Assembly: GCA_965225955.1 (NCBI GenBank)
Contig: CBDDBX010000043.1
Span: 61,187 to 125,186 of the forward strand
Reading direction: 5' to 3'
Origin: Candidatus Aminicenantia bacterium
Lineage (GTDB): Bacteria; Acidobacteriota; Aminicenantia; UBA2199
DNA: 64,000 nucleotides
Of the stretch, positions 16,243-64,000 are shown piece by piece. The translations under genes and the position numbers were made by a program. The notes beneath the pieces are model-generated. The model saw only the letters and a program-made list of their open reading frames with translations. It was not told the origin of the DNA and made no database searches. The first letter of the stretch is position 1. Each line of letters starts with the position of its first letter.

Positions 16243-16282
16243 TTAATCATAACTCAACTTAATCATAACTCAACATTTGACA
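16243..16282. promoter_or_regulatory. Perfect tandem 16-bp direct repeat (TTAATCATAACTCAAC x2) abutting a consensus -35 box TTGACA in the divergent intergenic region
   Basis: 16243-16258 and 16259-16274 are identical. TTGACA at 16277-16282, about 110 bp upstream of the HD-protein start. Confidence 0.45.
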
Positions 16283-16390
16283 TTTATAGCTCATTTATCT
16301 ATTCTTAATTCATCCAGAGCAAATCCATTTTTTTGGATAAGATTGGTTTATAAGAATTATATTTAAACAAAAACAATTAGGAGTTATGAG

Positions 16391-18562
16391 ATGGACAGAA
16401 ACCCATGGCTAGATGACACGTTTAACGTAAGACTGCATGACATAAAAAAAAGAGTTCTTGACGAACATAAAAAATCAAAAGCACCAGAACTTAAATGGTT
16501 TACACCACATGGTGAAGAACATTACAAGAATGTAGAAATGAGATTAATGCAACTATTACCTGAATGTAATGATTTATCAGTAAATGAAAAATTTTTCCTA
16601 TTAACTTCGGCATGGATTCACGATTTGGGAATGATAAAAGGGATTTTAGATGGAGATGAACAACTTGATAGTTATGAAATAAGAGATAAGCACCACATCA
16701 GATCAGAACAATACATAGTTAAAAATCACGAATTCCTAGATATAGAAGAGACCGAAAAAGAAGCTTTTGCAATGTTAGCCAGATACCACAGACGTAGAGA
16801 GTTGATTACACAATGTGAAGAATCAATGACACTTCCTTATCATGGCAACATAAGAATACAGTTATTAGCAGCATACCTCAGACTAGCCGATGCCTTACAC
16901 ATAGATCAAACAAGAGCACCCTTTCAACAATATGCAATTGTTCTTGCGTACAACATTCCAATTAATTCTAAATTACACTGGTTAAGAAGTATGTTTGTGC
17001 TCGGAATATCAATAAATTTAAAAAACAAAGAAATTGTTGTTCAATTAAAATATCCGAATGACATAAAAGAATGGGATCAGGACGAAAGAGTCCTTAATTC
17101 AACTCTTGATAGTATATACGATTCTATTGTTCAGGATCTTGAAGAAGAACTTGCTACTGTTAAAGAGATATTAATAAAGGGCGGTCAGTCTTACATCTTA
17201 TCTATCAGAAAAGAGATAGTAAAAGTGAGATTTGACAAAAGCTTCAAAAGAGATATCAAAACAGTTTTAAATTATTACTATTTATTTGATAATCCAAGTA
17301 GCTCAGCATTATGCCGGTTAGTAATTGAATCAATTAGAGGAATACGAGATGCACACAATGGTAATATAAGGGAATCCATATCCACAATTTCAGATTTCCT
17401 CAACGAGATAAAAAAGAAAATACTTGATACAAGAACATGTCATACTGGCTTAAGTGATTTGGTAAAAAGTGTAGAGGAACATGTAAAAAAGCAAGGTGTT
17501 GAGGGATTGGACAAGAAGTTAGCAAAAGATGAAAAAAAGTTAAACAATGAAAGAAATGGTGTACGTGAAAATGCAAGAGAGTTTTTTGATATATTTCAAA
17601 AAAAGAACCCCAAAAAGCTAGCACAGAATAACAAAGTAAACATATTACTTTATGGTTATAGTGAATTAGTAATTAAATCCCTATGTGGTTTTAGAGATGC
17701 AATTATACAAAAAAAACTTAAAGATAAACTAAATGATAATATAAAAGCTCATAAACTAAACCTTGAACATGAAGCAAATAATAATTTCAGAATTTTTATA
17801 TGCGAAGGTCAACCCAAAAACAAAACAACATGGGGAGGAAAGTATTTATATCATGATGGTTTTAGATATGCTATTTCTTTAGCAGAAAGAAATTTTGAAT
17901 ATATATATATGATAGCTGATGCTACTGCTGGCTCATTAATTGCACGAGCGAATAACAGTTCATTTCCCCCAATAGATTTCATAATGGTAGGAGCTAATGG
18001 ATTTACTGAGAAAGAATTTAAACACTCTGCAGGACACAGTACAATTGCAGCTCTGAAATTTTTACCTAACAATAAAAAAGACTATCCTAAACTTATTCTA
18101 TCAATAATAAATAGTAAACATAATGAATCAGAGGATAAAAAGGAAGATAATAATAAAAATGACCTGAACAATGCTGATGACAGAGAGACAGTTCCTATCG
18201 ATGGCTGGACATTTAAAACCCCTTTTAATGGTGAACCAACAAGAAATAATATATTCGTCACTCAGGATCCAAAATATAAAAAAGATATGGATAACTTCAA
18301 AAATGCAATCGCAATATATAATCCTAGAGAAGATGCTATTCCAATTGATTGGGTAGACATAGTCATTTCAGAAAACGTTTGGCTCAAAAACACGGGTAAG
18401 GAATCATGGGGAGGCAGATATATTGTAGAACAAAAACAATCATCTTCAGAGCCTTATTGCTCTCTTAATAGTTATAGGAAAATACTTTTTTATAGAAATA
18501 AAAAGAGACAAATAACTCTTAGGCACTCTATCCAGCAATCTAGGTTGGTGGCAAGAAACTGA
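16391..18562 (+). CDS. HD-domain phosphohydrolase fused to an IF-2B / MtnA / R15P-isomerase-like (NagB/RpiA-fold) domain; unusual architecture
   Basis: 723 aa, AGGAG SD. N-terminal HD motifs HGEEH, WIHDLGM, KHH, YHRRRE, ADALHID. Lys-rich coiled middle. C-terminal third aligns by eye to the IF-2B family: ILLYGYSELVIKSL (cf. ILTHCNSSTVLKAL), FRIFICEGQP (cf. FRVIVTETRP), IADATAGSLI (cf. ITDSAVGYFM), IDFIMVGANGFTEKEF (cf. VDxVIVGADxIxxNGxVxNK). A further 160 aa are unassigned. Confidence 0.7.
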   Translation: MDRNPWLDDTFNVRLHDIKKRVLDEHKKSKAPELKWFTPHGEEHYKNVEMRLMQLLPECNDLSVNEKFFLLTSAWIHDLGMIKGILDGDEQLDSYEIRDKHHIRSEQYIVKNHEFLDIEETEKEAFAMLARYHRRRELITQCEESMTLPYHGNIRIQLLAAYLRLADALHIDQTRAPFQQYAIVLAYNIPINSKLHWLRSMFVLGISINLKNKEIVVQLKYPNDIKEWDQDERVLNSTLDSIYDSIVQDLEEELATVKEILIKGGQSYILSIRKEIVKVRFDKSFKRDIKTVLNYYYLFDNPSSSALCRLVIESIRGIRDAHNGNIRESISTISDFLNEIKKKILDTRTCHTGLSDLVKSVEEHVKKQGVEGLDKKLAKDEKKLNNERNGVRENAREFFDIFQKKNPKKLAQNNKVNILLYGYSELVIKSLCGFRDAIIQKKLKDKLNDNIKAHKLNLEHEANNNFRIFICEGQPKNKTTWGGKYLYHDGFRYAISLAERNFEYIYMIADATAGSLIARANNSSFPPIDFIMVGANGFTEKEFKHSAGHSTIAALKFLPNNKKDYPKLILSIINSKHNESEDKKEDNNKNDLNNADDRETVPIDGWTFKTPFNGEPTRNNIFVTQDPKYKKDMDNFKNAIAIYNPREDAIPIDWVDIVISENVWLKNTGKESWGGRYIVEQKQSSSEPYCSLNSYRKILFYRNKKRQITLRHSIQQSRLVARN

Positions 18563-18649
18563 TCCTACGTGTAATTTTTTATAGAGTATAGATAATTATA
18601 ACTTAAAATTCAATTGCTAATTTCTTAAAACCAGACACATAATTTTCAA

Positions 18650-41516: not shown

Positions 41517-41613
41517 ATTTCCTCCAGAAGCGTCTTCCCTGAGAACATAAGGGAATTTATCCAATTATAGCCTATAAGGCAGCTTTTGAAAATATTATTT
41601 TTTTGTATATAAT

Positions 41614-42000
41614 TTGAATTATACAAGGAGGTGGAATTTGAAATATGCAGCGCTAATTATTACAGCTATACTGCTACTCATATCCTGTTCTCCAAACAAA
41701 TTCAGATCTGAACTGGACTTCGGCAACAAGCTATCTTCTGAAGGTCTATGGAATGAAGCAGAATACTGGTGGAAAAGATCTGTAAAGAAAAATGGAGAAA
41801 CTGCAGCAACCCTGAACAACATGGGAGTATTTTACGAACAGAAGAGCCAATTGGAAAAAGCTCTTGAGCACTACAAGAGGGCTCAGAAACTCTCACCGGG
41901 GAACCGTTATATCAAACTTAACATTGAGAGGGTAACAAGAAGGCTTGGCAAAAAGCCGGAAGCTCCAGACAAAAAGAAAGGAGCTGAAAATGAGAAATAG
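41614..42000 (+). CDS. TPR-repeat lipoprotein
   Basis: 128 aa. Lipobox LISCS. One or two TPR units (LNNMGVFYEQKSQLEKALEHYKRAQKLSP). Confidence 0.55.
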   Translation: MNYTRRWNLKYAALIITAILLLISCSPNKFRSELDFGNKLSSEGLWNEAEYWWKRSVKKNGETAATLNNMGVFYEQKSQLEKALEHYKRAQKLSPGNRYIKLNIERVTRRLGKKPEAPDKKKGAENEK

Positions 42001-42628
42001 CCTGATAGTTTTAACAGTAGTTGTATCTATGCTTCTGGCTGTATCATGTGCCCGCCCCAATCATAAGGCAGTGAAGATAACTGTTGAGCCTCAGTCAGGT
42101 ATAGATTTTGAGAAATACAAAAATGTATACTACGCCGGGTTCTACATTAAAAGAGAAGGTAAGAAAACTGACAGTAAAGATGTAACTGACAATTTTTTCC
42201 TTAAAGAACTGCCAAAAGCTCTGGCTCTTGAGATTAAAAGGCTTCCTTCAGCTCCTGAATGGCAGAATGGCAAAAAGGAATTCCGGGATTTGCGGGAACA
42301 ATACCCCGATAGTCTTATAATTTCAGGCATGGCTACAATTAAAGAGTCCAGCAAAAGTGTTATCCGCAAAATAAAGGACAAAGATGGCAACAAAAAGAAA
42401 CAGTTTGTAGAGACTAAAGCAGAAACAATCAAATCAACAGTTGTTATTTTTGATACCAGAACCGGTAGAAAGATCTTTAGCAGAAAATTCACCAATAAAT
42501 TATCAGGTAAAGAGCTTGGAGAGAAGGATTTTAACCTGAAAGCACTTTTTGAGAACAATATGGATAAATTTATAAGAAACCTTCTCAAGCGTCCCGGTAG
42601 GGAAACCCGTTACATAATTTATAAATGA
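41990..42628 (+). CDS. Lipoprotein, hypothetical
   Basis: About 212 aa from MRNSLIV (AAAGGAG SD). Lipobox LAVSC. Lys-rich. Confidence 0.5.
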   Translation: MRNSLIVLTVVVSMLLAVSCARPNHKAVKITVEPQSGIDFEKYKNVYYAGFYIKREGKKTDSKDVTDNFFLKELPKALALEIKRLPSAPEWQNGKKEFRDLREQYPDSLIISGMATIKESSKSVIRKIKDKDGNKKKQFVETKAETIKSTVVIFDTRTGRKIFSRKFTNKLSGKELGEKDFNLKALFENNMDKFIRNLLKRPGRETRYIIYK

Positions 42629-42642
42629 AAGGGAGCTTAATT

Positions 42643-45468
42643 ATGAAAAAAGTAATCATTTCAGCAATTCTGCTGATAGCATCAGCCCTTTCACTAAATG
42701 CCCAGCTCGGATATTACTATTACGGTAAAAATAAAGTTATGAAAAAGAAGTTTCACTGGAAATATGCGGAAACAGAAAATTTCAAAATACACTACTATAC
42801 GGACAATACCGATCTGATAAGGCGGATAGGGCTGAGTGCGGAGAAATCATACAGAGCACTTTCTGACTATCTTAATATTAAAGTTAAGCAGAAAATCCCT
42901 CTGATTTTCTATAAAAACCACATAGATTTTGAACAGACCAACATTACAAGCTATGTACCCATGGGAGCTCTGGCCTTTGCCGAACCTATGGCTTACAGAG
43001 TTGTAATTCAGGGTGATTCGTCATTCAAGGATCTTGCTGAAACAATACAGCATGAACTGGGACATATTTTTGAATACACTCTTATGGGTAACAGAGTATT
43101 CAGAATGAGGCCGCCTCTGTGGCTGATGGAAGGTTTTTCTGACTTCATCACCTTTGACTGGGATGAGTTCTCTCTTCTCACTGTAAGAGATGCTGTTATA
43201 AACAACCAGATACCCAAATTTAACAAATACGGGCAGTTTGGCATAGGTGGAGGAAGAGCTCCTTACGATTTTGGTCATCTTATATTTGAGTTTGTAGCAG
43301 AAAGACATGGAGCCACAGGAGTAAGGAAACTTATCAGATCAATAAAAGGTTCCACCTTTTTCCGCAGATCAGGTAATGCCCTTAAAATACTTGGCTATAC
43401 TCACAAGACGTTTAATTATGAATTTGGTAAATATCTGAGAAAAAGGTTTAAAAAATACAGAGATCTTGAGAATCCTGAAGATTACAGTTTCTCTATTGGT
43501 CCTGAATTCCCCTTTATCTACTCTTTCTACCATAAGCTCTCTCCTTCAGGGGAATTAATGGCTGTGCTCACTGTTAACAGAAAGAGCAGGGATCTGGATA
43601 TCATTCTGTTGTCTGTAAAAGATGGCAAAGTTATAAAAAACATTACCCCGGGATACACTTCAAAATATGATGGAATAAATCTTAAATTCAATCCGAAAGA
43701 TGGTTCATCATTTGCGTGGAACCGTGACAGCGACAGGCTGGCCTTCTTTGCCAGAAAAGAGCTTGACTATTTCCTTATAACAGTAGATGTTCTTAATGGG
43801 AAAATTCTCCAGAGAATTAAAATGCCGGAAATCCATGACCCCTCTTCACCGGTATTTCATCCAACAAAAGACGAAATATACTTTACTGCACTAAAAGGGA
43901 CAAACTCTCCAATATACAAGATTAATCTGAAAACTGAAAAAGCAGAGATACTTACCCACAGTAAGAAATTTATAAAGGCTCTGGACATCTCAAATGATGG
44001 AAAAAGGATTGTCTATTCAGCAAAAGAGACAAGTGAAACTGACTGGTTCAAACTTTATGCGGCTCCATTAACACATCCTGACTCAGCAGTAAAAATTACT
44101 GACGGTGAGTTTAACGACATAACCCCATCTTTTTCAGAAGACGCAAAGAAGATCTACTATAGTTCAAACGATACTTCATCCTATAATGTCTGCACCATAA
44201 ACAGTGACGGAAGCAACAGACAGAGATTTACCAATGTCAGTACAGGTAACTTCTTCCCTTCAGAAATTCCCGGCAAAAAGAATCAGGTAATTATCTCCTC
44301 TTATTTCAACGGAATCTTCCAGTTATTCAAACTTAAACTGGAAAAACCTGTTAAAGAAGTAAGCAAACTTGACCCCTGGGTTCTGGATAAGCCGGTTCAG
44401 AAAGCTGTAAAAGATTTCAGACTCAGTCCTGAAAAGAAGTACAGCCCACTGAGCAAACTTCACGTAAAGAGCCTCTCTCCTGTTGCAGTCAGTATCGGTA
44501 CAGACGGACGTTTTCTTGGCTACTCTTACCTGACAATGAGTGATCTTATGGGAGATCACAACTTCTCTCTGATGCTCATAAACTATTATGGATACCAGTC
44601 TTACCACTTCTACTATGTTGATCAGAGCAGAAGGCTACAGCCGGTAGTACATCTGTTCCTCAACAAATCTGTATACTACAGGGGCTATAACTACAACGAC
44701 TACCTTACTGTAAGGGAAACATATGGTGGTGAAATTGGCTTCTACTATCCATTTAACAGATCATACAGAGCAGAAGCCACTGTCTCTTTCTACAATCAGA
44801 AAGAGAGATCAGATCTCTTTTACGGAGGAGTCAATCTCCCTTATGGTCAGTATTTTGATGGTAAAGCCATGCCTGTAAAACTATCTCTTGTAGGAGAAAC
44901 TACAGGTTTTATGCATTATGGCCCAAACAGAGGACACACATTCAAACTCAGTTACAGCAAATACCTCCCTCTGTCAGATTCAATGCTTGATGCATACTCC
45001 ATTACTGCAGATGTCAGAAAGTATGTACATATAGACAACCATACTCTTTTGGCATTCAGAGCTATGGGCTTCTATTCCGGCGGTAAAAACCCGATACTTT
45101 TCTGGACTGGAGGGGATAACACTATAAGAGCTAAAGGATACTCTTCAATGGTTGGTAGCAGAGGTTTTGTGTTTAATGCTGAATTCAGATTTACTCTTGT
45201 TCACGCCCTTGCAACCCCTATCGGAATAATGGGGCCTATCAGAGGAACTTTCTTCTTCGATTTAGGAGCTGCATGGTTCAAAGATCAGGACTTTGACTTC
45301 TTTGTTGATGGTGATGGTCTGAGACTGAAAGATCCGATCTCTTCATACGGATTTGGTCTTCAGTTCTTCTTCTTCGGTTACCCAATGCACTTTGACTGGA
45401 TATTTACAACAGACTGGAAAAACGATCGCTATCACGGATTTAAATTCTGGATCGGTTTCGATTTCTAA
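42643..45468 (+). CDS. Large outer-membrane protein: zincin-like HExxH region + TolB-like beta-propeller + C-terminal Omp85/BamA-like beta-barrel
   Basis: About 941 aa from MKKVII (AGGGAG SD). Signal peptide. HELGH metal-binding motif. PD40/TolB-like repeats (ITPSFSEDAKKIYYSS, DISNDGKRIVYSA). C-terminal 400 aa amphipathic beta-strands ending ...FWIGFDF. Confidence 0.6.
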   Translation: MKKVIISAILLIASALSLNAQLGYYYYGKNKVMKKKFHWKYAETENFKIHYYTDNTDLIRRIGLSAEKSYRALSDYLNIKVKQKIPLIFYKNHIDFEQTNITSYVPMGALAFAEPMAYRVVIQGDSSFKDLAETIQHELGHIFEYTLMGNRVFRMRPPLWLMEGFSDFITFDWDEFSLLTVRDAVINNQIPKFNKYGQFGIGGGRAPYDFGHLIFEFVAERHGATGVRKLIRSIKGSTFFRRSGNALKILGYTHKTFNYEFGKYLRKRFKKYRDLENPEDYSFSIGPEFPFIYSFYHKLSPSGELMAVLTVNRKSRDLDIILLSVKDGKVIKNITPGYTSKYDGINLKFNPKDGSSFAWNRDSDRLAFFARKELDYFLITVDVLNGKILQRIKMPEIHDPSSPVFHPTKDEIYFTALKGTNSPIYKINLKTEKAEILTHSKKFIKALDISNDGKRIVYSAKETSETDWFKLYAAPLTHPDSAVKITDGEFNDITPSFSEDAKKIYYSSNDTSSYNVCTINSDGSNRQRFTNVSTGNFFPSEIPGKKNQVIISSYFNGIFQLFKLKLEKPVKEVSKLDPWVLDKPVQKAVKDFRLSPEKKYSPLSKLHVKSLSPVAVSIGTDGRFLGYSYLTMSDLMGDHNFSLMLINYYGYQSYHFYYVDQSRRLQPVVHLFLNKSVYYRGYNYNDYLTVRETYGGEIGFYYPFNRSYRAEATVSFYNQKERSDLFYGGVNLPYGQYFDGKAMPVKLSLVGETTGFMHYGPNRGHTFKLSYSKYLPLSDSMLDAYSITADVRKYVHIDNHTLLAFRAMGFYSGGKNPILFWTGGDNTIRAKGYSSMVGSRGFVFNAEFRFTLVHALATPIGIMGPIRGTFFFDLGAAWFKDQDFDFFVDGDGLRLKDPISSYGFGLQFFFFGYPMHFDWIFTTDWKNDRYHGFKFWIGFDF

Positions 45469-48212: not shown

Positions 48213-48587
48213 CTATGCATCCTCTCCCAGAAGGTTTTTTACACATTTAAGGAATTCATCATTTTTGAAAGGCTTACCAAGAGTAGCATCGGCTCCCAGC
48301 ATCTTAGCAAGAGGCAGATAGGAATCAGGCCCCATTCTGCCACCACCGGAAATAGCTATCACAGGCATATTACATCCCCCCCGCCTTATTTCCTGGATAG
48401 TTTCAATCCCCTCTTTTCCGGGCATGATTATATCGGTAACGATAAGATCATAACTATTGCTGCCTACCATATTAAGACCAGCAGCACCATCTTCTGTACT
48501 ATCAACACTATACCCCGACTTCCTTAAAAAACGGGTTAACATAGCTCTTAAAATATCGTCATCTTCAATTATCAATATCTTTTTCAC
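48213..48587 (-). CDS. Single-domain response regulator (CheY-like receiver)
   Basis: 124 aa. DD...D...T...K receiver residues (IIEDDD, VTDIIMPG, KPF). Confidence 0.8.
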   Translation of the reverse strand: MKKILIIEDDDILRAMLTRFLRKSGYSVDSTEDGAAGLNMVGSNSYDLIVTDIIMPGKEGIETIQEIRRGGCNMPVIAISGGGRMGPDSYLPLAKMLGADATLGKPFKNDEFLKCVKNLLGEDA

Positions 48588-49734
48588 TATTAATAACCTC
48601 CCAAATTTTACGTCCCATCTCCTGTCTGGTGAAAGGTTTATTTAACACTCCCCTTATTCCTGACCCTGCAATTTTCCCGCCAACAATATCACTGCTGAAC
48701 CCTGTACTCAATATAACAGGAAGATCTGATCTGATTTTCAAAGCCGCTACTGCCAGTTCAGGTCCGGTCATATCAGGCATTGTATGATCAGTAATAAGAA
48801 GAACAAATTCATCAGCTCTCTCCTTAAGTATATCAAGAGCTTCCAGACTGCTGCCTGTACCCACAGCATCGTATCCAAGCATTTCCAGAATACCACTACC
48901 AGTTTTTACAATCAACTCGTCATCATCAACAAGTAAAACAGTACCCTCTCCGGTAAATTCAACCTCCTTCTGAAGAGTCACAGGAACTTCAGCCCGTTTA
49001 CGGCCTGCTTCCGGCAGGAGAATTCTGAAAGTAGATCCCTGTCCATCAGCACTACTCACCTGAATGTTTCCTCCACATTTCTCAACAATCCCGTATACCA
49101 CTGACAAACCCATTCCTACTCCCTGCCCAACCTCTTTGGTAGTAAAGAATGGCTCGAAAATTTTCTCCTCCAGATCTTCAGATATTCCTGTTCCACTATC
49201 TGCCACTTCAATAACTATATAAGAACCCGGCTCAACTACTCCTCCTACCTGCCCTGACTCTTCTGACACAAGTCTCTTTCTGAACACCTTTACAGTCAGC
49301 TCACCACCACCATCCATTGCTGACACACCATTTGCAATCAGGTTCATCAGAACTTCATGTACATAAGCTGAATTAAAAAGTACCGGACACTTCTCACCAG
49401 CAATATCCAGCCGACTCTTTATATCAGAAGGAAGAGATAAGCTGATGAGTTCAAACGCCTCTTTAACTACCGGAACAATATCAAGTACCTCTGGTTCTAT
49501 ATTTTCACCTCTGCTGAAAGTCAGAATCTGCTTAATCAGCAACCTGGCACGTTCTCCCGCCCGCATAACCATTCTGAGATTCTCTGCAACCTCACTATCC
49601 TGTTCAACCTCATCAAGGGACATCTCTATAAATCCTGACATTCCACCAAGTACATTGTTAAAATCGTGGGCAATTCCTCCTGCCAGTACCCCTACAGCCT
49701 GCATTTTCTGTGCCTGGCGTGCCTGCTTCTCCAT
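48565..49734 (-). CDS. Hybrid histidine kinase core (HisKA + HATPase_c + receiver); 3' part of a decayed sensor gene
   Basis: 389 aa. H-box IAHDFNN. N, G1 (DSGTGI) and G2 boxes. C-terminal receiver (LLVDDDE...DHTMPDM). Confidence 0.75.
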
Positions 49735-51642
49735 AACTCTGGATTCTGTGAGATCAATAGCAACACCTCCAACAAACGACTTCCATCAGGCATTATCAGA
49801 GGAAATTTAATATCCCGCAGAACAATTACTCTATCTCCATCATCTACTTCATATTCTACTTCTTCATAATCAGATCCATTGATAATCCGCTGTTCGGCTT
49901 CCAAAGGACTTCCTGCCAGCTCATTATTCAGAAGATCTGCCTCTTCCACTTTACGGAATTTATCAAACCCCGGAAACTGAAGGGCCCTCTTGTTTCTGAA
50001 CAGATATTCCAGCTTTTCATCTTTTATATAGGCAAAAACAGGAATATTGCCCATAAATGCAGCAAACTGTGTTTTACTCTTCTCAAGAGCCTCCTCCACT
50101 AACTTCTGATCGGTTACATCAACTGCCATACAATCAACACCCCGGAGTTCATCTCCATCATCAAATACAGGAAGGTGATAATGCTCTACCCATATCTGTT
50201 TCCCATCTTTCCGAATCCACCTTACCCTTATGGGCTTCCGGGTCTCTATTTCACCACTTAGTATCCGCCCCATTAATTTCCGGTTTTCAGGTAGAGTGAT
50301 TCTTATGCCGAGAGCCGATCACTATAGAACTCTTCCGCTCCATATCCGGTGATATCCATCACTGTAGAGTTAATAAAAACATATGTACTCTTTTCAGGAT
50401 CATATTTGTATATCATAGCAGGTGAGTTTTCTGTCAATCTCTTATACTTCCGTTCGCTCTCCTCAAGCGCGAGAGCAGCCCTCTTCTTCTCTGTAATATC
50501 AAGAGATGTCCCCTGTACAGAATATAGACAACCATCTACAATCGTTGCTGTTGAGTTGTAATCACCCAGACTCTATCTCCTTTTCTGTTAACCCTTTCTG
50601 TTTCCATGTTCTCTATGGCAAATCCGGCTTCGTACTGCATTTTCATTATTTGCCCGAAAGTTTCACTGTTTTCCTGCATCAACTCAAAAAGATATTGTCC
50701 CACAACCTCGTTAGCACGATCATACCCAAGGATGAGAGCATAGGAGTCATTGCACTCCTCAAGATACAGATTCTCTTTAACCCATATAGTAGTATCTTCA
50801 AGGGAAAGCCCCAGAGGCATAGGCTTTCTCATCTTAAAAAAGAACAGCATTACCAGGCTGTCTTTTATAAACCTGTAATATCGTCTGTCACTTACTTCTG
50901 CTTTATGACTGGCATCTTCCCGACGACGGATCTGGGTGCCCAGCAGCTTATAAAAAACAAAAAAGCCTATATATCCTATAAACAGAATTGCTATGTAAGA
51001 TAGAATAAATGAGCTGACTCTGTCACTGTGAATTCTGAAATATCTGCCCATTGGAACAGATACACTGATCCCCCTCTGATATCCCCAACTTTATATCCCT
51101 GCATAGAATGGCACTTAAGGCACCCCTCTTCTACAAACATAGGCTCCATAAATCTTAAGTAGATCTTACTCCCGATCTTCTCAACTACACTACTTTCAGC
51201 CTTACCTTCCCGGAACTCCATAAGACTCTTTTTCTCCCAGGTATCAGGTATATTTACAGGATTTATCGGGTTAAGACTTGTAACATGGCCTTTGACACCA
51301 AGGGTTTTAAACCGATCTCATGAACCTGCCGTGTCATATATGCCGGATTAATTAAAGTATATTTTCTGCCTTTTACAGAGATAATATCTCTCTCTTCTAC
51401 TTTGAGATAGGGATTAGGGATACCTTTATCTGAAACAGGAACATATAAACCCCCATGCATTGAGGCCCACCTTCTGTACTGAAGGTCTTTATTGTAACCT
51501 GCTCTGGCCTGCTCAAGTGCAAGCATCCTGACATCTTCCTCATCTGCTTAACATTGATCAGAAATGCTCCAATCAGAATAAGTGTAAAGAAGCTTATCAG
51601 CCAGATAAAAATTTGCCTTACTTTTTTAATATCACTGCTCAT
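49692..51642 (-). pseudogene. Sensor region of the histidine kinase broken into at least 5 frame fragments (TM anchor, heme-c CxxCH sensor domain, 2 PAS-like domains)
   Basis: Same-strand fragments 51397-51642, 51263-51526, 50991-51221 (CLKCH), 50536-51051 and 49692-50273 lie in different frames, with an unread gap at 50274-50535. Confidence 0.55.
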
Positions 51643-51813
51643 TACTTCAGCCTGCCAAAGCTATAGCTATACTATATAATAGATAACGAATTTAATCTCA
51701 TTTCATCATAAATTTATCAGACTCCGGCATTCCGGGCTGATTTTATATCAGCCAATTCATTTCAAAGTGCTGCAATCCATCAGAAACCTGAATATTGACG
51801 GCTCTGAAAAAAA

Positions 51814-52457
51814 ATGTATCCTGAAAATATGCTTAGAATACATGGTGGAATATATAAAGGAAGAAAGCTGAAAACCGTCAACGACCCTGGAGTCAGACCT
51901 ACAACGGCTAAACTCAAACTTGCATTTTTTGATATTTTACAAACGATATAAGAGAAACTGTGTTTCTTGATGGCTTTGGTGGTAGTGGTAACGTAGGACT
52001 GGAAGCAATATCACGTGGAGCAGATTATGTTGTATTTATAGATCAGCTTCAGGAGAATCTGAAAGTACTGAAACACAATATTGATAAAATTGGTATCCCT
52101 TCTGACTACTACAGATTAATAAAGGGGGACTACAACAGATCAGTAATCCAGCTACACAAAGAGGGGATGAAATTTGACATCGTTTTTCTTGACCCTCCAT
52201 ACAAACTTCTTGAATACGCCAATCCTCTCAAAATACTTTACAAGAGAAACATCATGGCTGAAAATGGAATTGTAGTTCTGGAAAGACCCAAAGCTCTCAA
52301 ATTTGACGCCAAATATTTTGAATTGTATAAAACTCACACTCTGGGGCAGAAGTGTCTCGATTTTTACAGGCTTCCCAAAGAAGAAAAAGATCTGAGTAGA
52401 ATATATTTCAGGGCAGGAAATTATCAGATTTTCCTGCCAGTCAGTTTTTCCAGATAA
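51814..52457 (+). pseudogene. rsmD: 16S rRNA (guanine966-N2)-methyltransferase RsmD with frameshift
   Basis: N-terminal frame 51814-51951 (MYPENMLRIHGGIYKGRKL...RPTTAKLKLAFFDILQTI*) and C-terminal frame 51960-52457 (FLDGFGGSGNVGLEAISRGA...DIVFLDPPY) are both RsmD-like; frames differ. T6 run at the switch. Confidence 0.6.
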
Positions 52458-52563
52458 TCAACCATAATTGAACCGGTACGGTTCTGGGAATACTTCTCAA
52501 GAGCCTTCTGCTGAGTATCCAGTACCTTCTGGCGGAACACAGAATCCGCAACAAGTCTGTCAA

Positions 52564-53214
52564 TTACCCTGCTATATTTACATACTCTTTTCTGTTAACA
52601 AGAATACCACCACGGTTCATAGTCTCCTTAACAGCTCCTGCATTAAATGCAACCACAGGTATATTAAGATAGAAACCTTCAGGTACAGGAGCACAGAACC
52701 CCTCATGTTCACTCATATGCAGATAGATATCTGCAAGTTTAAAGTAGGTCAGCAGTTCATCTTCCGGCACATGCCCGGTGAAGTGAATGTTTTCAACTTC
52801 CAGATCAGCTACCATCTTCATAAGAGCAGAGTGATAACGTTCAAAACCTCGATATTCTCCTACAATAATAAGTCTTGAATCTTTATTGAAAAGTTTCTGA
52901 TACATTGCAAAGGATTTTACAACGTCTTCTATTTTCTTATTGGGAATAATTCTTCCTACATAGATAATATTTGTTTTATCGTCTCTGAAAATATCATCAA
53001 CCACCGGAACCGGAGGTTTATCAAATTTATGAAAATTCATAACCAGAGGCAGGACTCCGGTATTATCAAACCCCGCTTCATCGAGCTCATCCACATTGTA
53101 CTGTGAATCTCCGAGAGCCAGATCAACTTTACCTACAAATTTTTTTAGTTCAAGACGACCTTTAAAGCAATCTTTAGCAAGAATCCTGTGGTAGTCCAGT
53201 AATGTCAGATACAA
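52564..53214 (-). CDS. Glycosyltransferase family 4 (GT1 clan), C-terminal domain only; truncated at the composition junction
   Basis: 216 aa. IIYVGRIIPNKKIEDVV and EHEGFCAPVPEGFYLNIPVV (E-x7-E). N-terminal Rossmann domain absent. In-frame stop at 53215-53217 where the TA-rich repeat begins. Confidence 0.65.
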   Translation of the reverse strand: MYLTLLDYHRILAKDCFKGRLELKKFVGKVDLALGDSQYNVDELDEAGFDNTGVLPLVMNFHKFDKPPVPVVDDIFRDDKTNIIYVGRIIPNKKIEDVVKSFAMYQKLFNKDSRLIIVGEYRGFERYHSALMKMVADLEVENIHFTGHVPEDELLTYFKLADIYLHMSEHEGFCAPVPEGFYLNIPVVAFNAGAVKETMNRGGILVNRKEYVNIAG

Positions 53215-53355
53215 TCATATATATATGATTATATGTGTGTATATATATATACATATATATATAATATAAATCTGTAATATATATATAAATGTATATATAT
53301 ATGTATATACACATATACGTACGTATATGTGTATTCCGTTATATTTATATACAAT
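53215..53355. repeat. TA/TG-rich simple repeats at the start of the eukaryote-like segment
   Basis: (TATATG)/(TA)n-type low-complexity sequence. Confidence 0.8.
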
Positions 53356-53914
53356 CAGAGCATGCCTGAACTCCTGTCATGGTGATCGCTCAGTGTGCCA
53401 GGCACATGACTTATGTACGTGGAAGACCACTGGGGATGCCACACATTGAAAACCCAAGCGCAGCAACTCGACAAAATCGGCGTATCCCATGAAGTCTTGT
53501 AGCAGAAAGACGACGTGAGGGCCGTTGTATATGCCTACATTTTAGAACTCTAGAACATACACATTTATTGTATACATGCTAGATATTAGAATGTCCAGTG
53601 ATGTTGCAGCTGCAAAAGAAATGCAGCCACAGAAGCTGTGACGTGGGTGGTGCTAACCCTTGAGACTTGATCGCCACAATCTTCATTGTCGCAGTACACA
53701 GCCTAAGACTCAATGTAAGTTTCAGGTTTTTTCAAGATCTGAAGTTCCCAAATCCATGCATCATGCTAATATGCTGAATCTTGTGTGGATCTAAGGAGGA
53801 TGTCGAGAAGTGGCATGCCGTCTATTGCCAGAAACTGACAGAGCTTTTTGACAACTACAAGGGCCGAAACCCGGATTACAAACACAAGAAACTCATCATC
53901 AAGTGATGGCAGAA

Positions 53915-54044
53915 ACCGATTGCCGGATTGCCGGATTGCCAGCAGTCCGGCAGGTGACGTACTGTCCCTTGCATCGATTGGTTGGATCGATTGAATCGAG
54001 AACTGGAAAATGCCGGCTGCGGCTGCTGCGGCTGCGGCTGCTGT
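53915..54044. repeat. Cluster of short tandem repeats: (GATTGCCG)x3, (ATCGATTG)x2, (GCTGCG/GCTGCT)n
   Basis: Read directly from the sequence. Confidence 0.7.
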
Positions 54045-54588
54045 GCTTGAACGATAAATCACCAGTGACCAGCAGTTTAGTGAAGGCAGCCACACCACAT
54101 GCTGGCGATGTTTGCTTTTGACTTCTTGCCAAAGTAGAAATCTTAGCCTCTCTATGCCTTTCTGATCCTGAAATAGTGGAAAATGGTGGGTTGAAAATCA
54201 AGACTCCCCCAGTCAGATTCATCCCGCGGCCCCAAACCTCCGAGCAAAATGGAGCTGACAATCACCCCCCATTAATGGCCATGAAGTCTTGCAAGCACTT
54301 GAAACCTTCATTTTCCCACATTTCCCCCCAGGTTTCAACGCCCTTCAAATTGGTGGTACACCTGCCGTTTTTAGTAAAAACCCAGCAGCTTTTCTACAGG
54401 CTCTGGTGAGGAAGAGCTTCGTAGCCCTGCTGCAGCAAAGGCAAAAGGCTCGCGCACGTCAGATGGCCCTGATGCAGGCGCAACTGGATACAGGTTGAAT
54501 GGTTTCTGGTATGGCAGTAATTTGTATCGAACTGTTTAGATATATGCTGTGTATGATTTGCATATATAATATATTTTAATACAACTAG

Positions 54589-54760
54589 ACATACATAGAC
54601 ATAGATACAGACACAGACATTGACATAGACGTAGACATAGACGTACACACACTCACACATTATATCCACAAGTACACACACACACACACATATATTTATA
54701 CGCATAAAAACATCCAGTTGGCTGTATGTATATATATATATACATAGTGTTATATGTATA
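54589..54760. repeat. Compound microsatellite (GACATA/GACAGA-type units, (CA)n, (TA)n)
   Basis: Read directly. Confidence 0.8.
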
Positions 54761-56483
54761 TCGATCCTATATATCAAAGTACATTTGAGTCTCCAGAACA
54801 TGTCCTGACTGTACACTATGTCTATCCCTGTCGTTGTTTCCGTTGGATTTTCCCAAGGATCACCTGCCAGGTGGTGAATCAATTGCTGGAAGAGAAATTG
54901 CTACAGCACGTGGTGAAATGCCTTCGTCTCTGGAGGTGCCATGATACTCTGCTGGTATTTTTTCAAGTCGTGTCCCAGTGCTTCACTCACTAAGCTATTC
55001 CCAATATTGCCGTAAATGGGTTGTAAATATTATCCCCAAATGGCAGGTTCAATATTAGGTTACCACATTTTTTTGAACATATCACCAACTGAACACAATA
55101 AAACTATAGCTGGCAATGGATACTTGAGATTAGAAAACCTAGCAGCATATGGCTTTGACCCTCCTTGAAAGTGCTGGGTCATCGCCCAGGTTGTCGCATC
55201 CACCCAGCATCAGCCAGGTCTAAAGCCGCCAAAGGTTCCATTCTGCGACGTGGTGGCCTGGTCCTGAAGCGCTTCCTTGATGCAAGCTGCGGGAGCCTCA
55301 GGGCGTCCTTGGCTTGATGTTCACCAAAGAATTGATGACCATCATGATGACCAAACTGCAAGTCCCAAAAGTGATGGACAACTAAAGCCAGAAGAGTCGA
55401 TCTACACAAAGCGCAAATCCCAAAGATCAGCTGGTCCATGCGAAGGACCAGCTGAAGTCTATCTTTCTGAACGTGATACACCACAGGCATGTTGACGTAG
55501 GCTTTTATATTAACAATTAATGCAAAAACATCAAAAACACTATGCATATGTATTCGTTCAGTGCCTTGAGGACCAAATTCAGCATCTCCCTTCATATCTG
55601 TGCCAAACACAAGCATTTGCAGCATTCACCGGAAGGTCTACGAAGATGGCTAAGCACTTGGATGGCCAATGTGGTCCGAGCAAAGAGGTGCATACCGCGA
55701 CAGCCTGTTGTTCCAAGGCCATGTTCCTTGACCCCAAATGTCACTACCTGCGCCATCCTGCCCAGCTCTGGCTCACAGATCCACCATGCCATGGACCTTT
55801 GCAGATCCCAGCGAGCTAAGCGGCTCAGTGCTTCTTGAGGTCTGTTTGACAAGCTTGATGAACCCAGAGATACAGCAGATAAAGCACGTGCTTTACAAGA
55901 TTGGTTTGCCCAAGAAATGGAGGATACACAATGTATGCTCCGGGATGAACAGAGTCCCTATTTGCGGTCTACCACCCCAAACCACCAGCAACCTGTTGTT
56001 TGAAAAGTTGAATACGTATCATTTTCCATCAATCCCTATCATTTTCCATACTTATCGTTGACTTTACCACTTTACCCATTGAAATCTCTTTCCTACCAAA
56101 ATTGGCACCCCTGCGACTAATGGGTCGCTTCAGTTTCAGTTGCCATGGCCTTGGGGCTGTCGCCCGTGTACCACTGGGAAACCAGCGATGATGCAGTCGT
56201 CACCTTTGACGCTGTCCATCGGAGGCTGGGTGAGTTTTTTTTTCTGCCCCCATGATTTTGAATGCCCAGTGGCCATAAATATCTCTCATTTGCTTTCCAC
56301 ATATTGTCTTAACGGTGAAGAGTTTCATAGTGTTTCATGTGTACGTTTGGGTGTTCCAAAAGCCTCGCTACAAGACATTATGGACAGGGTTCTATTTTTT
56401 TTGGTAGTATGTGGGTATTTCTCAAAGCAATAACACCCAATTTAGCTGCCATGTGAATGACGTTAAAATGGGTTCAGGTGCCT

Positions 56484-57066
<583 letters not shown>

Positions 57067-57403
57067 TCTATATAATATGACCTCCCAAAAATCGGAACGT
57101 GTATCATTGACCCCGTTGGTAGAATCGCATGACTGCAACAATTCTCTGATATTCTCAGTTCCTAAATTCCTAGACTCCCCATTTTGCCCAGAATTCCTAG
57201 ACCCTCCGCCTTTAGGGGGTGCCAGGATCATCCACATCCGATCTGGTGGCTTTGACACGGTGAACGTCATCGATGGTGCCATCGATGGGGAACCCCCTCC
57301 GGATGGCCTCTCCGTGCAGCTGGAGCAGGACCTCCATGGGATACCCATCAAAACCATTGATGAATGGTTTTTCCCATCAAAACGTCCATTTATGGGGGAT
57401 GAT

Positions 57404-57450
57404 CAATGGGAAATCCATGGGAAAATCCATGGGAAAATCATCATCTATGG
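57404..57450. repeat. 12-bp tandem repeat CCATGGGAAAAT x about 3
   Basis: Read directly. Confidence 0.7.
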
Positions 57451-60400
57451 GGGATTTCCCAGCTAGCCATGTGTGAAAATCCCGGAGGATATCCCCTTTG
57501 GAGTTGGACAGCAACTTGAAGTGGACCACATTAATGTTCGCTGTGGACCGCCTGCAGATAACTGATAGCTTCAACTAGAGCTTCTGAAGAAAGTTACCCA
57601 GATTCCCCTGGAGAGCAAATACTGACACGTGGGAAGCAGTAGCAACAATGTGTGCAATTCTGTTCTGTCACATGGCGACTTCCAAAAGCCTGGTACATTC
57701 AGATTCTGGTGTCATCCAGACCGCCAGGAAGGCATTCATTCTTTGAGATTTTCACCTGATGGGCTCTACTTCGCATTTCTGGCCAAGTCCAGACGAGTGG
57801 GAACAGTCCAGACGATGCAGCATCAACCTCAGAAGGGCAGAGAAAAGGGCGGGTTCGTCCAAAGATGATCTCAAAATCCAGTCGGTTAGAAAATCACCTG
57901 GGATACTGGCCCCTATTTTCTGGACAAAGCTCTTTACAAAGCTCTTTGGTATGGTGGCATCACGTCCCTCCCCAAGGCCTAAGCAAGTTCTTTGGCCAAG
58001 CTGCAAATGGAGCAGCAAGGCCTGGTCCCCATTGGATTGGACATCATGAAAACGCGTTCAGGTTATAGGATGTTATAGGTCATTGCATGCCCACCTAATT
58101 TTTTGTTTACTTCTGGTAAAATCTTGTTGTTTTTTTCCAGGACCCCAAAGAATCCTTGCTAGTTACTGAAGAGTCTCATCCACACCACGAAAAATCATGG
58201 CCGTGCGCACAGGCTGACTTTGAGATTCTGGGTTACTTTTGGCTGCCTGGAGGGCCGCAACTTGGTGTACCATGGTACTCGTAGGAAGATGACCTTTTGG
58301 TACTCAACAGAATGGCCAACTTCGGTTCAACTCCAGTATTCTTGTGGATGATCCGACCCATTGTGTCACGAATTTTGCTCGGTAGTTGGGAAGGTTGAGT
58401 TCATGCCTGGTTGGCCATTTTATATATCTTTACACCGCTTTTAAACATATTTGTCCATACCGGGCTGGTGGACAATTGGCAATTGATCCAGTCATTTTTG
58501 TGACATGTGACCCAAACACCAAGAAACACCACCTACTTTTATGCAATGGTGGTTCATTCTTCAGTCCACTAAATATATTTGTTTCAACGCTGCTTTTGAG
58601 ATTTTGTTTCGGCCTGCACAATTCCATGAACAATCAGTCCAACCATCAACCCAGCAGACATTTGACCAGCATCTAGTCCAAGCATGTCAGTGGAAACAAC
58701 ATATTCACAACTCATACCCAACACAACAACTTACACCAACTAACCATCTACCTCGTGATTTCACGGTAACCAACATCCAACCCATCCAGTTGCAACGTCT
58801 GCAGGCAGGACTGCAACTCTGGCCATGGTCAGTTCTCACGGAATCGAGATCTTTCGCCTGAGCTTCGAGCAGCAGCTTGGAAAAAAATTGGGCGTTGTAC
58901 CTATTTTATCCTATTTTATCCTATTTTCATATATTCAACATGATTCAACCATCCATTTTTGCGGGATCATTTTGAGCCATTCCGAAATGAACGGTAGGTC
59001 TTGCCGAGTCCAAACATATAGATGTTTGAGTCCCCCAAAAATTGAAGATGCACATCTAAACACTCTTTTTTTCCGACCAAGGAAGACCTGGAAATCGTTG
59101 AAGACCTTCCCCTCTTCTGTGCGAATTTGTTGGTTGGATCCTGCGGCCAGCACCGTATTGCTTTGCACTGGGACGCGGACTCTTCAACCCTTTGACTTCC
59201 GCAGGAGGAATCCTAAACTTCCAAGATTTGACCTTGTGTCTTGGCTGGTCTTGGCTATCACATGAGGAATTTGTGGGTTTAGTGAAAAATCTCCCAAGGA
59301 TGATATCAATGATATCACTTTCGATTTCCAGTAAACTACAGTATGTACTTCCTTTGTTCTTCCCTTCTACGGCATGGATCTCCTTTTGATAGTTGTCTCC
59401 AGTCACTGAGGTACTGACTCGCGGCCATTCCATTGAACCAGCCGATGTTGCACTGGTCACAATTTACGACTGCAGCTACTGCATACATGCAGATGGCCTG
59501 ACTGGCCGCTGGGATGTTAGTGTGTATGAATGCTTATATAATATGTCAGTTATATATGTTATCCTTTTTTTTTCGTTGGAAACTCACATTTATTTGCACC
59601 CACAAGCAGGTCTCTAAGCCATTTGGCGAAAGATTAAGTAATCAAGGCCGGAAAGTGACGCTTTTGTGCGAAGACAACCAACCAATCCTCTTCACTGGTA
59701 CTTTCAAGCTTGGCTTGTACAGACCCAAGATGATAAAAAGTCCACGTCACAAGATCGCAAGTGGCCCACAATACATTTTTTTCATTAATTGTGCATCGTT
59801 CCTTTTTCATCGTTCTGAAATACATCATACGAGATCTCAACCTCTAAGACTCTAAAAGATAAGATAATCATATAGATAAAATGATAAAACCACGATTTTT
59901 CTGCATATCTGAGAGCCGCCAATGGTTGCCCTGGAGATCCTCACGGCCGGCGAGGAAAAGTGTCCCTGCGCAACGTCACGAATTTGGAGCAAGGCACCCC
60001 GGAGCATGACATCGTCATCGACATCTCGGAGAGTGACACGCCAGTGGGTCCGCTACGTTTGTCGGTGGTGGACAACCTGCTGATTGTACACTGCTTGGAA
60101 AGGAGCCCACAGAATCCACAAAATCCACAGATCAAACTGAATCAAAGTCATGAACAGGATTCCTCCGGAAGTGGAATCGACTGGATTTATCTGGATTTCA
60201 TCTCAGTGACTTGTGAGGGATGGATGGGATTAGGTTAAACAGTTAAAATGGCTTTTGTTTTCTTGCCAGGATGGTGGCTTTGATCTTCGATATTCGACAC
60301 AAAGAACGTGACATCGTTCCAAGCCTCATCTCGCCATGTCTCTTGACAAAGCTCCAAGAATTTCTTTGATTTTGCAGATCAGATCTTTTTTTGTTGATAG

Positions 60401-61689
60401 CATCATATTTCTATGTAGATTAAACCCCTATCAGATACCCAAGTTCATCCAAGTTCTAGAGTTGGCTTCAAGGGCAAATGTCAAAATTCAATAGACAGGC
60501 GCAGCCAACGTTCAGCCAAGCGTCAGGTACTGTGACCTCTCACGAGGGCCCGTTGGTGATCTGGGATTACTTGGATGGTGGCATCGTATTGGATGCCAGC
60601 AAGGGTGTGGTGTATCAGTTGCGCCTTGACTGTGGCATCATTTTAGAGGATTTCTTATCGCGGCCACCGCATGAACTGGCCACTGTCCTGAAATTGCTGC
60701 TGCGGAGAACGGGATGCAGAGATCACATCGTGCAACTGCTGCGGAAGGGCTTGGTGTCCAAGACCAACTCCTCGGAAATGGCACAGGGATTTCAAGTTCT
60801 GAACTCGGCCTATCGACAGGTCATTGAAGCCTTATCTCAAAAATCGGGTACGCGGCAAACGACGGTTTCGCTTCAGGAGCTTGAGGCACAAATCGCATAT
60901 CAGTCAGTGCTGTCTGAAAAAGATATGGTGACATTGGTCTTCCATCCCCACTTCGTCATGAGTGAGGGTCTGGAAGAGAGCATTCCAACTGGAAACAACG
61001 ATAGCTTTGCATTGGAGAATTGGACCATTCCGGAAAGCCTTCGAGTGACAAATCCGGGCAAAGGAGGCAAGACCCCATATGTCTTGTCAGTGGTCATCAG
61101 CTATTTGCGAAGTCTGCTGGGACTTCAAATCTTGCCACACAAAATTCTGCAGTGCTTTGTCTTCGACATTTGCGTCTACTTCAGGCTGGATCACAGGGGA
61201 ATCAGTGATGGTTTGAAACGACCATAACATGACATGCTCATGGTACCTCATGAAGGGATTCTAGATGCAGGGTGAAGTAGACTCAGTAAACATCTAAAGG
61301 ATCTAAAGGTCCAAACATGATAAACATGGGGTTTTGCATCGTTTTCTGAGATTCTGTTTGAGTCAGACGTTGGAAGCTTGCATGCATGAAAACAGGCAAG
61401 AGCATCTGTTGCAACAGCTGCTGCACTATCATGCGGCGCACTCAGAAGTGGATTTCGCAAAACCTTCTGTGCTCTTCCAAAATTCCAAACCCTTCCTCAA
61501 ATTCATCCAAAATCGGCATCGGCATGGATGGCAGTTGCAATCCATCTTTGCCAATTCTTCTTTCTTCCGAACATCCACAGTTGACCCCACAATTGCGCCA
61601 AGAATCAATCCCAGAATTGCAGGGGCAACACAAATCACAGCAGCCCCCCCAAAATCAAATTGAGGTCCAAAGTCCCATCGCTTTCTTTA

Positions 61690-62015
61690 TATATTCTATA
61701 CAATATATATATATATATTCTATACAATATATATATATATTCTATACAATGTATATATATATATAATATATATTCTATACAATATATATATATATATATA
61801 TATTCTATACAATATATATATATATTCTATACAATGTATATATATATATTCTATACAATATATATATATATATATATTCTATACAATATATATATATATT
61901 CTATACAATGTATATATATATATTCTATACAATATATATATATTCTATACAATGTATATATATATATATATATTCTATACAATATATATATATTCTATAC
62001 ATTTCTATACATGTA
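61690..62015. repeat. Minisatellite, about 22-bp unit ATTCTATACAATATATATATAT x about 13 (variable TA length)
   Basis: Read directly. Further TA-rich arrays follow at 62215-62350. Confidence 0.85.
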
Positions 62016-64000
62016 TATCTTGCCCATACCCTCTATTTTTATCCATTTCCCAGTCCCCTCCGCCCCACGGTGCTTCGCTGCGAGGTCCTGTTGGACTCCC
62101 CGGAGCTGGCGCTGCGGCTGCAGATCTTGGCGAAGGACAGTCGGAGCTGGGCCACCCAGGCGAGCCTGGCACCTTGGCGCTGCTGGTGGAAATTGGAGAC
62201 ATATGTTGAGGCAAAATTGGTTATATATACTGTATATATACTGTATATATATACTATATATATATATATATTGATGATATAAATTTATATATACATATAT
62301 ATATACACTATATATATACACACTGTATATATACTATATATATATGTATACATAATTATATGTTGTTTGTTTTGAAACAACACATTGAGAATGACGGGTT
62401 GAATGGCTTAAAGTCTATAGACGTCATATTTTTGGAACATATTGGGAGGACATATCGGGAAAAACATGGGATTATCATAGAATGACTTGGCCAAATCTTG
62501 AGAAAAACATGTTTATCGTTCTGGAGATTTAGCTCAGATGAAGGGACAAGCAGGGTGGTAATAGGATGCCGGGATGCCTGAATGATGTAGAGATGGCTCC
62601 ACTTGAGCAAAATCAACATGGATGGTTTACTACTGATGGGATATCGGAGATGATCTCCATGTTGCGGATGTCAGTTTTTCCCACGATTTTTTGAGGGATA
62701 CAGGATACACCACATGGCCAGGGTTGCCGGTTGCCCCCGAGGACATGGCGTTGCGTGTGCGGGAGTTCTCTGTGGTGGCTGAGATGCTACTCTTTTCCGG
62801 GCAGTACCTGGACATTGTGCCAGGAACTCAGAGTTGAAGGATGCTCTGGAAATCTTTGGAAATGCTGAGCTTGGAGGATTTGGTTTGGCTGTCTCATGCT
62901 GTCTCAATTGGTCATCAACAAGCTGACTTAAGTTGAGTTATGACTTGACTATACTGTCTGAAAGATCAGCAACTTCCACCCCAGATGGTTGGATTGAACC
63001 TTTAGTCAAGACTAGTTCCTCCAGTCACCATGGCCACATGGCCGAGGCCGTTCATCGTGACTCAGAAGGATGTGAATTTCAAGGTGAAGACTCTGCTTGA
63101 GGAGTTGGAGAGCGACATTAAGGCCAATTCCGAAGATCCGGAGCTGATGCAGCATGCCGCTTGGATCCGCTTGGCAAAATGACACAAAATGGGAAGGAGG
63201 TATCTAGACTATTCTAGACTTAGTAGACATCATTTTGGTGGCATTTCATTTGCATTTCATGTATTTCATCCTCCATTTTGAGTCACTTTGCCCTCAAAAA
63301 AAGTGCCTCGATGTGCCCCGTATGGTGGCAGAGCTCCGTGCTTTTCGCACAGCGCATCAGCCCAGGTCTTAACTGAAATCCGACTCTGGAAACAGGAAGC
63401 CGATCTTTCTCCTCGATCCGCAGAGGGTGGAGGTTCTTGGGGCTGAAAACTACATGGCTCAAGCGGATGTTCTTGGTGAATTGATGTTACTCTCTGGCAA
63501 TTTCAACATAGCTATGGAACATCACCATTTTTAGTAGGTAACATCTATAAATGGGCCATGCATGGCCATGCACGACACCACGCAATCCTCCCTGCAGTGC
63601 CTCAACCTGACCTCGACGGATGCGAGAAATGGCTACCAGAGCTGGTTGGGACGCCAGCAATGCAAAACACAGCAGGATGAAACCGGATGAAACACCCCAA
63701 TAGTTCCTGTTGGTAGGTGTGAATTTTATTTTTTCATGGATTTGAAGTTGGCTACCTCGTCGCTTTGAGGTACTAACCAGACCAGGAGCTGTGGATTCTC
63801 ACATTGCCCCAGCACCCAGCCACTCCCAGGTCAACACCTTGACGTCCTGAGGGAAAAAGGGCGGCAGCGCAAATGTCTTTGGAAACGAAATGCCAGGAGA
63901 TATGAAGGCATATCTTGAAAGGCTGCAGATTGGCAGTTTCGAAGCTGCGGATTCTGGCCGTTTCTCTTTTGAACAAGTCCTAAACAAATCTTTTTGGGGT

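Follow-up and report, generated by a model that had tools for sequence, protein, structure and literature searches.

Misjoins between organisms occur in long-read assemblies of metagenomes and holobionts, chimeras being a known artefact of long reads, and they are usually diagnosed by read depth and spanning reads. In the Wolbachia nuclear transfers of insects and nematodes, too, a collinear stretch of bacterial chromosome tens of kilobases long adjoins host DNA, and the boundary cuts through a gene. Donors of the Wolbachia type are heritable intracellular symbionts, and their inserts, which are usually decayed or common to host individuals, are backed by spanning reads, PCR, or FISH. Our literature search on Aminicenantes with coral and Cladocopium, and on horizontal gene transfer (HGT) or contamination in Symbiodiniaceae, found nothing usable.

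Here we analyze a window (the whole stretch of DNA under study, 64,000 nucleotides long) in which a bacterial chromosome gives way to dinoflagellate nuclear DNA between positions 53199 and 53200. A sequence-only reading had reported an abrupt bacterial-to-eukaryote-like junction and had left it as either a chimeric join or a genuine insertion. The junction is present in the sequence, and of the two readings the chimeric join is the one favored by the comparisons below, while transfer from symbiont to host finds no support in them. The features referred to in the text are as follows.

1 to 53199, no strand: compact bacterial chromosomal segment (open reading frame tiling, Pfam and NCBIfam matches, GTDB relatives)
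48568 to 51642, minus strand: hybrid PAS-HisKA-HATPase-receiver histidine kinase gene with six single-base deletions (tblastn of P0264)
51814 to 52457, plus strand: RsmD-type 16S rRNA methyltransferase gene (Cons_hypoth95; Pfam PF03602)
52427 to 53199, minus strand: truncated GT4 glycosyltransferase gene (PF00534/PF13692; 100% amino acid identity to P0001 in two frames)
53197 to 53202, no strand: breakpoint zone (alignments of L002, P0001, L086, and L087)
53200 to 64000, no strand: nuclear DNA of Cladocopium, a dinoflagellate of the Symbiodiniaceae (identity to L086, L087, and L083)
53217 to 53340, no strand: TA-rich imperfect repeat (TRF; aligns with L086 and L087; length differs between strains)
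56145 to 63653, plus strand: RMC1/Mic1 (regulator of MON1-CCZ1) gene of about 16 exons (PF07035; tblastn of Cladocopium goreaui CAL1140488.1, P0272)
56505 to 57064, no strand: (ACATACAG)n/(TACA)n microsatellite of 560 bp in RMC1 intron 1 (TRF)
61688 to 62354, no strand: two TA-rich minisatellite arrays with 22-bp and 13-bp units, in RMC1 introns (TRF; lengths differ from L083)

Results

A single, base-exact change of parentage

The position of the switch was found by comparing where homology ends on both sides. Homology to a bacterial relative, the Logan contig L002, extends up to 53202, and the intact same-species protein P0001 is matched at 100% amino acid identity up to the codon at 53197-53199; from the opposite direction, two Cladocopium contigs (L086 and L087) are homologous to the window from 63905 down to exactly 53200. 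Parentage thus switches from bacterial to algal between 53199 and 53200, where the two parents share at most 3 to 4 nt (CAG/CAGA) of microhomology. The two sides come from different organisms and meet at a single switch point, and the existence of near-identical homologues of each side in a different organism puts the junction far beyond chance. Every base at the join is assigned to one of the two homologies, so that no adapter is found there, and the zero unassigned bases between the bacterial and Cladocopium homologies rule out adapter remnants. Likewise, the window sequence has neither Ns nor a scaffold gap at this position.

The sequence-only reading had put the junction at a stop codon of the glycosyltransferase frame, where TA/TG repeats begin. 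The stop at 53215-53217 is indeed there (TGA on the minus strand), and TRF dates the onset of an AT-rich array to 53216/53217, but the true breakpoint lies 16 nt to the left of the stop, which is algal DNA read in the bacterial frame. Both the 17 nt to the right of the breakpoint (TAATGTCAGATACAATC) and the TA-rich repeat after them belong to Cladocopium itself and occur in L086 as well as L087, so the repeat is not debris of the junction. For the same reason we rejected the TA-rich stretch as basecaller junk or as a false-overlap repeat; in addition, the breakpoint is 17 nt to the left of the repeat, and the sequence with which L002 continues on the bacterial side lacks TA richness.

The junction sits 2.9 kb upstream of the RMC1 start codon and is the only one in the window, the left end of which (position 1) is still bacterial. 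It is also in the public record itself, as a protein (P0135) with the junction-derived N terminus MYLTL; cluster look-ups trace the window's own open reading frames, P0135 included, to an NCBI/ENA contig of 127,107 bp.

The glycosyltransferase cut by the junction

The minus-strand open reading frame at 52564-53214 matches Pfam Glycos_transf_1 (PF00534, 7e-21) and Glyco_trans_1_4; with 74.9 bits for PF00534, the C-terminal domain passes the Pfam gathering cut-off of 26.4. It had been claimed that the gene retains only its C-terminal Rossmann domain. The gene is cut by the junction, as that claim implied, but what is kept is residues 100-357 of 357 (258 residues; residues 1-99, or 297 bp, are missing), which comprise the C-terminal domain together with the last portion of the N-terminal domain. 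To the earlier account we add a frameshift: a 1-bp deletion (GGGG to GGG) at ~52575 shifts the glycosyltransferase frame. With residues 1-99 lost and the frame broken there, a complete two-domain GT-B protein is not encoded in one open frame.

In other respects the truncated gene is an ordinary GT4. It resembles the GT4 proteins of Aminicenantes metagenome-assembled genomes (MAGs; GT-B fold, Glycos_transf_1) in its 68-70% identity, its PF00534/PF13692 matches, and its RsmD neighbor, as in L002, and it differs from them in that the window copy starts only at residue 100 and is frameshifted. Because an intact orthologue (P0001) exists elsewhere, the truncation is no property of the GT4 family.

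The left side is a bacterial chromosomal segment

That the left half is bacterial, as the sequence-only reading held, is borne out by its housekeeping genes and its Aminicenantes-like relatives. Open reading frames are packed head to tail, the longest reaching 948 amino acids, and stop-to-stop frames of at least 200 codons hold a fraction of 0.81 of the bases left of the junction versus 0.23 right of it. GC ranges from 0.30 to 0.44 and is ~39% overall. Pfam and NCBIfam identify intact genes for MreB, PBP2/MrdA, RelA/SpoT, UvrC, ClpA, ClpS, and a B12-radical SAM protein; further genes encode a response regulator, the PAS-HisKA-HATPase-receiver hybrid kinase, RsmD, a beta-lactamase-fold protein, and transporters. 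Scans with Rfam and for tRNAs found no tRNA, rRNA, or other Rfam family at threshold in the window (1-64000), including its 53 kb of bacterial DNA.

The bacterium is of a lineage that has no GTDB representative and is distantly Aminicenantes-like. Among 185,579 GTDB species representatives, the best relatives of the glycosyltransferase are Aminicenantes/Acidobacteriota MAGs at 68% amino acid identity, so the same species is absent from that set, and RelA/SpoT is 61% identical to its counterpart in an Aminicenantes MAG. The relative L002, at ~79% nucleotide identity in the glycosyltransferase gene, has the same order of glycosyltransferase, RsmD, hybrid kinase, response regulator, ClpS, and ClpA, and carries three more bacterial genes upstream of the glycosyltransferase.

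Nothing in 1-53199 suggests that it has resided in a eukaryotic genome: neither decay by substitution, nor repeats or introns of the host, nor a drift in composition was found. Dinoflagellate-type microsatellite arrays are also absent from this segment, in which TRF detects only two tiny two-copy arrays. Four pairs of adjacent open reading frames (344-2381, 5322-6418, 12731-14498, and 41590-42628) were considered as candidates for hidden frameshifts and rejected, each pair being separate genes according to Pfam.

Two side observations concern this segment. Eukaryote-like proteins are encoded on it, namely, an ankyrin-repeat protein, a TPR protein, a 947-amino-acid PD40/WD40-like beta-propeller, and a Ser/Thr kinase (open reading frames at 5322-5819 on the minus strand, 41590-42000 and 42625-45468 on the plus strand, and 6577-7947 on the minus strand). 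Bacteria associated with sponge and coral hosts are often enriched in proteins of this kind, and this repertoire of repeat and signaling proteins suggests that the bacterium may be a member of the holobiont and not a stray contaminant. Separately, a low-GC island at 14000-18600 (GC ~0.30 versus 0.39) contains a 723-amino-acid HD-CE/HD-domain protein (16391-18562) and two open reading frames with no family match; PADLOC gave no match in the island, which may have been acquired horizontally within the bacterial chromosome.

A burst of homopolymer deletions next to the join

Eight 1-bp deletions, all of them inside homopolymer runs, lie at 49773-52575, within the 3.4 kb to the left of the join.

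~49773: TTTT to TTT, hybrid histidine kinase
~50316: CC to C, hybrid histidine kinase
~50557: AAA to AA, hybrid histidine kinase
~51070: G6 to G5, hybrid histidine kinase
~51305: TTTT to TTT, hybrid histidine kinase
~51544: GG to G, hybrid histidine kinase
~51950: GG to G, RsmD (inferred from L002)
~52575: GGGG to GGG, glycosyltransferase

In tblastn, the intact 1,027-amino-acid kinase P0264 aligns with the window at 100% amino acid identity in seven consecutive pieces that lie in alternating frames, and the RsmD gene changes from frame +1 to frame +3 relative to its L002 orthologue. Over the ~1,280 codons compared with P0264 and P0001, there are 7 frame breaks and 0 amino acid substitutions. 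The remaining 49.7 kb of the bacterial side shows no evident frame breaks, as judged from open reading frame tiling, Pfam and NCBIfam matches, and a relative-based scan that showed no frame switch. On the algal side, 6 kb of unique sequence at 57-64 kb shows no 1-bp homopolymer indels against the 99.9%-identical contig L083, and the 3.3 kb immediately right of the join (53.2-56.5 kb) has 3 window-specific 1-bp deletions, which are indistinguishable from real variants. Consensus quality therefore falls locally at the join, with deletions in 49773-52575 and none evident in 1-49.7 kb or 57-64 kb. Were errors spread uniformly, the chance of all eight falling in the 3.4 kb would be ~(3.4/53.2)^8, roughly 3e-10.

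Since the deletions are confined to homopolymers and are accompanied by no substitutions, they look like under-polished nanopore-type consensus error and not like the decay of pseudogenes. Such a cluster of errors is most simply read as a sign that very few reads supported the stretch next to the join. In principle, the cluster could come not from a single bridging read but from a region that the assembly contains twice and that was badly polished for that reason.

The right side is Cladocopium nuclear DNA

The claim that the right half is eukaryotic holds, and its source can be named: it is Cladocopium nuclear DNA with an RMC1 gene. L086, a contig of 1.39 Mb, and L087 are 93-94% identical to the window at the nucleotide level throughout 63905 to 53200, and a JGI metagenome contig (L083; Ga0126342_10000395) is 99.9% identical to 57065-64000 outside the repeat arrays. 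The compositional features attributed earlier to this half are likewise present. GC rises from ~0.38-0.41 to 0.41-0.48, one AT-rich kilobase excepted, and TRF finds the (TACA/ACATACAG)n microsatellite at 56505-57064, a 22-bp TA-rich minisatellite spanning 61688-61993, and other repeats. The long open reading frames on this side, which cover 23% of the bases, are mostly read-through of simple repeats.

Residues 1-655 of the C. goreaui protein CAL1140488.1 align by tblastn with ~16 collinear exons in the window, most at 87-99% amino acid identity. Exon 1 is at 56145-56228 and exon 2 at 57224-57331. A 249-amino-acid open reading frame at 60478-61227, containing the large exon 60529-61194, matches RMC1_C (PF07035) with 29 bits against a cut-off of 26.9 and shares a 90% cluster with CAL1140488.1 and with proteins of Cladocopium sp. 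Y103.

Several further observations bear on this locus and its annotation. A second C. goreaui protein (CAL1139637.1, P0273; 1,204 amino acids) is named "Diacylglycerol O-acyltransferase 2," yet its first ~669 residues are RMC1; in L001 a DAGAT-matching open reading frame adjoins RMC1, and CAL1139637.1 is probably a fused model of two neighboring genes. Relative to the 99.9%-identical L083, the window differs by a 5-bp GGATC indel at ~58820, at an RMC1 exon (58810-58902) that matches the C. goreaui protein at just 68%; strain variation, an error, or mis-modeling of the exon could each account for it. The window's exact RMC1 exon open reading frames recur in two other metagenome assemblies, the 249-amino-acid frame in L083 and a 223-amino-acid frame (P0280) in L096, a 1.6-kb scaffold (SHAF22-1_SAMEA7724055_METAG-scaffold_39045, ENA ERZ23499395). 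The possibility that this second contig represents a duplication within the source assembly was rejected, as L096 belongs to another ENA assembly. This Cladocopium genotype has thus been sampled repeatedly, and same-strain data on the structure of the native locus exist.

The repeats of the algal side also say something about how the window was assembled. In several independent samples, short-read contigs break off in the TA repeat (53277-53292) or in the (ACATACAG)n array: L083 begins at 56886, inside the microsatellite, and so does not cover the junction, and L088, L089, and L091 stop within the TA repeat. These two repeats, whose lengths vary between strains, are general assembly breakpoints for the Cladocopium locus. 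Because the window spans repeats at which all the short-read contigs found break, it derives from long reads.

Both parental loci continue elsewhere

Comparison with independent assemblies indicates that both parental loci run uninterrupted past the breakpoint. On the algal side, L086 and L087, which come from two different ENA assemblies, extend 7.8 kb beyond it, in L086 from position 12415 onward, with algal sequence of their own; this continuation is 98% identical between the two contigs, has a GC content of 44.5%, and is absent from the window. A bacterial insert at the matching site is thus absent from the related hosts represented by L086 and L087, while L088, L089, and L091, which stop in the TA repeat, are uninformative. 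The identity of only 93-94% marks L086 and L087 as other Cladocopium lineages, in which a strain-specific insertion would not show.

On the bacterial side, a separate NCBI/ENA contig of 10,761 bp encodes the full 357-amino-acid glycosyltransferase (P0001) and the full 1,027-amino-acid kinase (P0264). It probably also carries the ClpS and response-regulator genes, the exact sequences of which occur on two contigs.

Discussion

We consider it very probable that the junction is an assembly chimera in which Cladocopium nuclear DNA is tied to the chromosome of a bacterium that is uncultured and distantly Aminicenantes-like. This reading is favored by the base-exact, gap-free switch of parentage and by the continuity of both native loci elsewhere, and also by the clustering of substitution-free deletions at the join, the lack of signs of eukaryotic residence, and the long-read origin of the sequence. 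Two points count on the other side. Low read support across the join is an inference and not an observation, and, of the algal contigs, L086 and L087 belong to other lineages at 93-94% identity, whereas L083, which is of the same strain, starts only at 56886.

A chimera of this kind could have arisen as follows. The source material would be a holobiont or metagenome sample of coral type, sequenced in long reads, among which one or very few chimeric reads, formed by ligation of two unrelated fragments in library preparation or by a template switch during amplification, would have bridged both genomes. This would have happened at a point of low bacterial coverage, with the assembler following the chimeric reads. 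A bacterial stretch resting mainly on such reads would have kept its uncorrected homopolymer under-calls, and the well-covered remainder on both sides would have been polished clean. The "truncation" of the glycosyltransferase would then reflect nothing more than the point at which the chimeric molecule chanced to break.

The principal rival, which we regard as very unlikely, is that 53 kb or more of bacterial chromosome genuinely entered the nuclear DNA of one Cladocopium strain, 2.9 kb upstream of RMC1, and did so very recently. A clean join with no adapter or filler and with no more than 3-4 nt of microhomology is something that nonhomologous end joining could yield, the junction stands in the public record (P0135, with its MYLTL N terminus), and the insert-free lineages are distant enough, at 93-94% identity, to be compatible with a strain-specific event. 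The intact 10.8-kb contig would be accounted for by a free-living donor still in the environment, and the homopolymer errors by polishing trouble where the assembly also holds the free bacterium's copy. However, the proteins are 100% identical to those of an independent bacterial contig, so that more than 53 kb would have to have been transferred at zero divergence, with no substitutions, compositional change, or host repeats, and with genes that are intact apart from homopolymer deletions, all of which fall in the 3.4 kb at the join. Had reads at host depth crossed a real junction, they should have left that stretch as well polished as 57-64 kb. Nor does the donor have a genome of the reduced or intracellular type, full sets of cell wall, stringent-response, and repair genes being kept. 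The prior for such large, fresh transfers is also far below that for chimeric contigs in long-read assemblies of holobionts.

Less probable still, and in our judgment scarcely credible, is a real bacterial pseudogene cluster, in which the glycosyltransferase, RsmD, and kinase genes are decaying at a natural chromosome or contig end to which scaffolding or mis-binning then attached eukaryotic DNA. Frameshifts in three adjacent genes are what such a cluster would show, but eight homopolymer deletions with zero amino acid substitutions are the signature of error, the genes are intact in an independent contig of the same species, and the join has no Ns or scaffold gap. The join would, moreover, be artefactual under that explanation too.

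On the preferred reading, an assembly chimera, there is no new biological feature at the junction, and the value of the case lies mainly in data hygiene. In a public contig of 127 kb, bacterial DNA is mixed with that of a dinoflagellate, and the contig could end up as contamination in a genome bin or reference and give rise to false reports of transfer from bacteria to Symbiodiniaceae. Conversely, a real insertion would be remarkable, as a very large and fresh bacterial insert in the nuclear genome of a coral symbiont, but no finding points there. The case also offers a recipe for flagging such joins without reads, in which a base-exact switch of parentage is combined with continuity of both loci in independent assemblies and, as a third element, with a local burst of substitution-free homopolymer deletions.

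Set beside the known systems, the locus is most like the misjoins between organisms in long-read metagenome and holobiont assemblies, with which it shares a base-exact switch, parents that continue normally in independent assemblies, a local drop in consensus quality, and no signatures of biological integration; it departs from them in having been diagnosed by sequence comparison alone. Nor is it a simple unsplit concatenated read, since neither adapter nor low-complexity filler is found at the join. The resemblance to Wolbachia-type nuclear insertions, which lies in a long collinear block of bacterial chromosome (tens of kilobases) abutting host DNA and in a gene severed at its edge, is superficial: the donor here has the look of a free-living or merely host-associated bacterium, related Cladocopium contigs lack the insert, and the sole "decay" in it is sequencing-type error beside the join.
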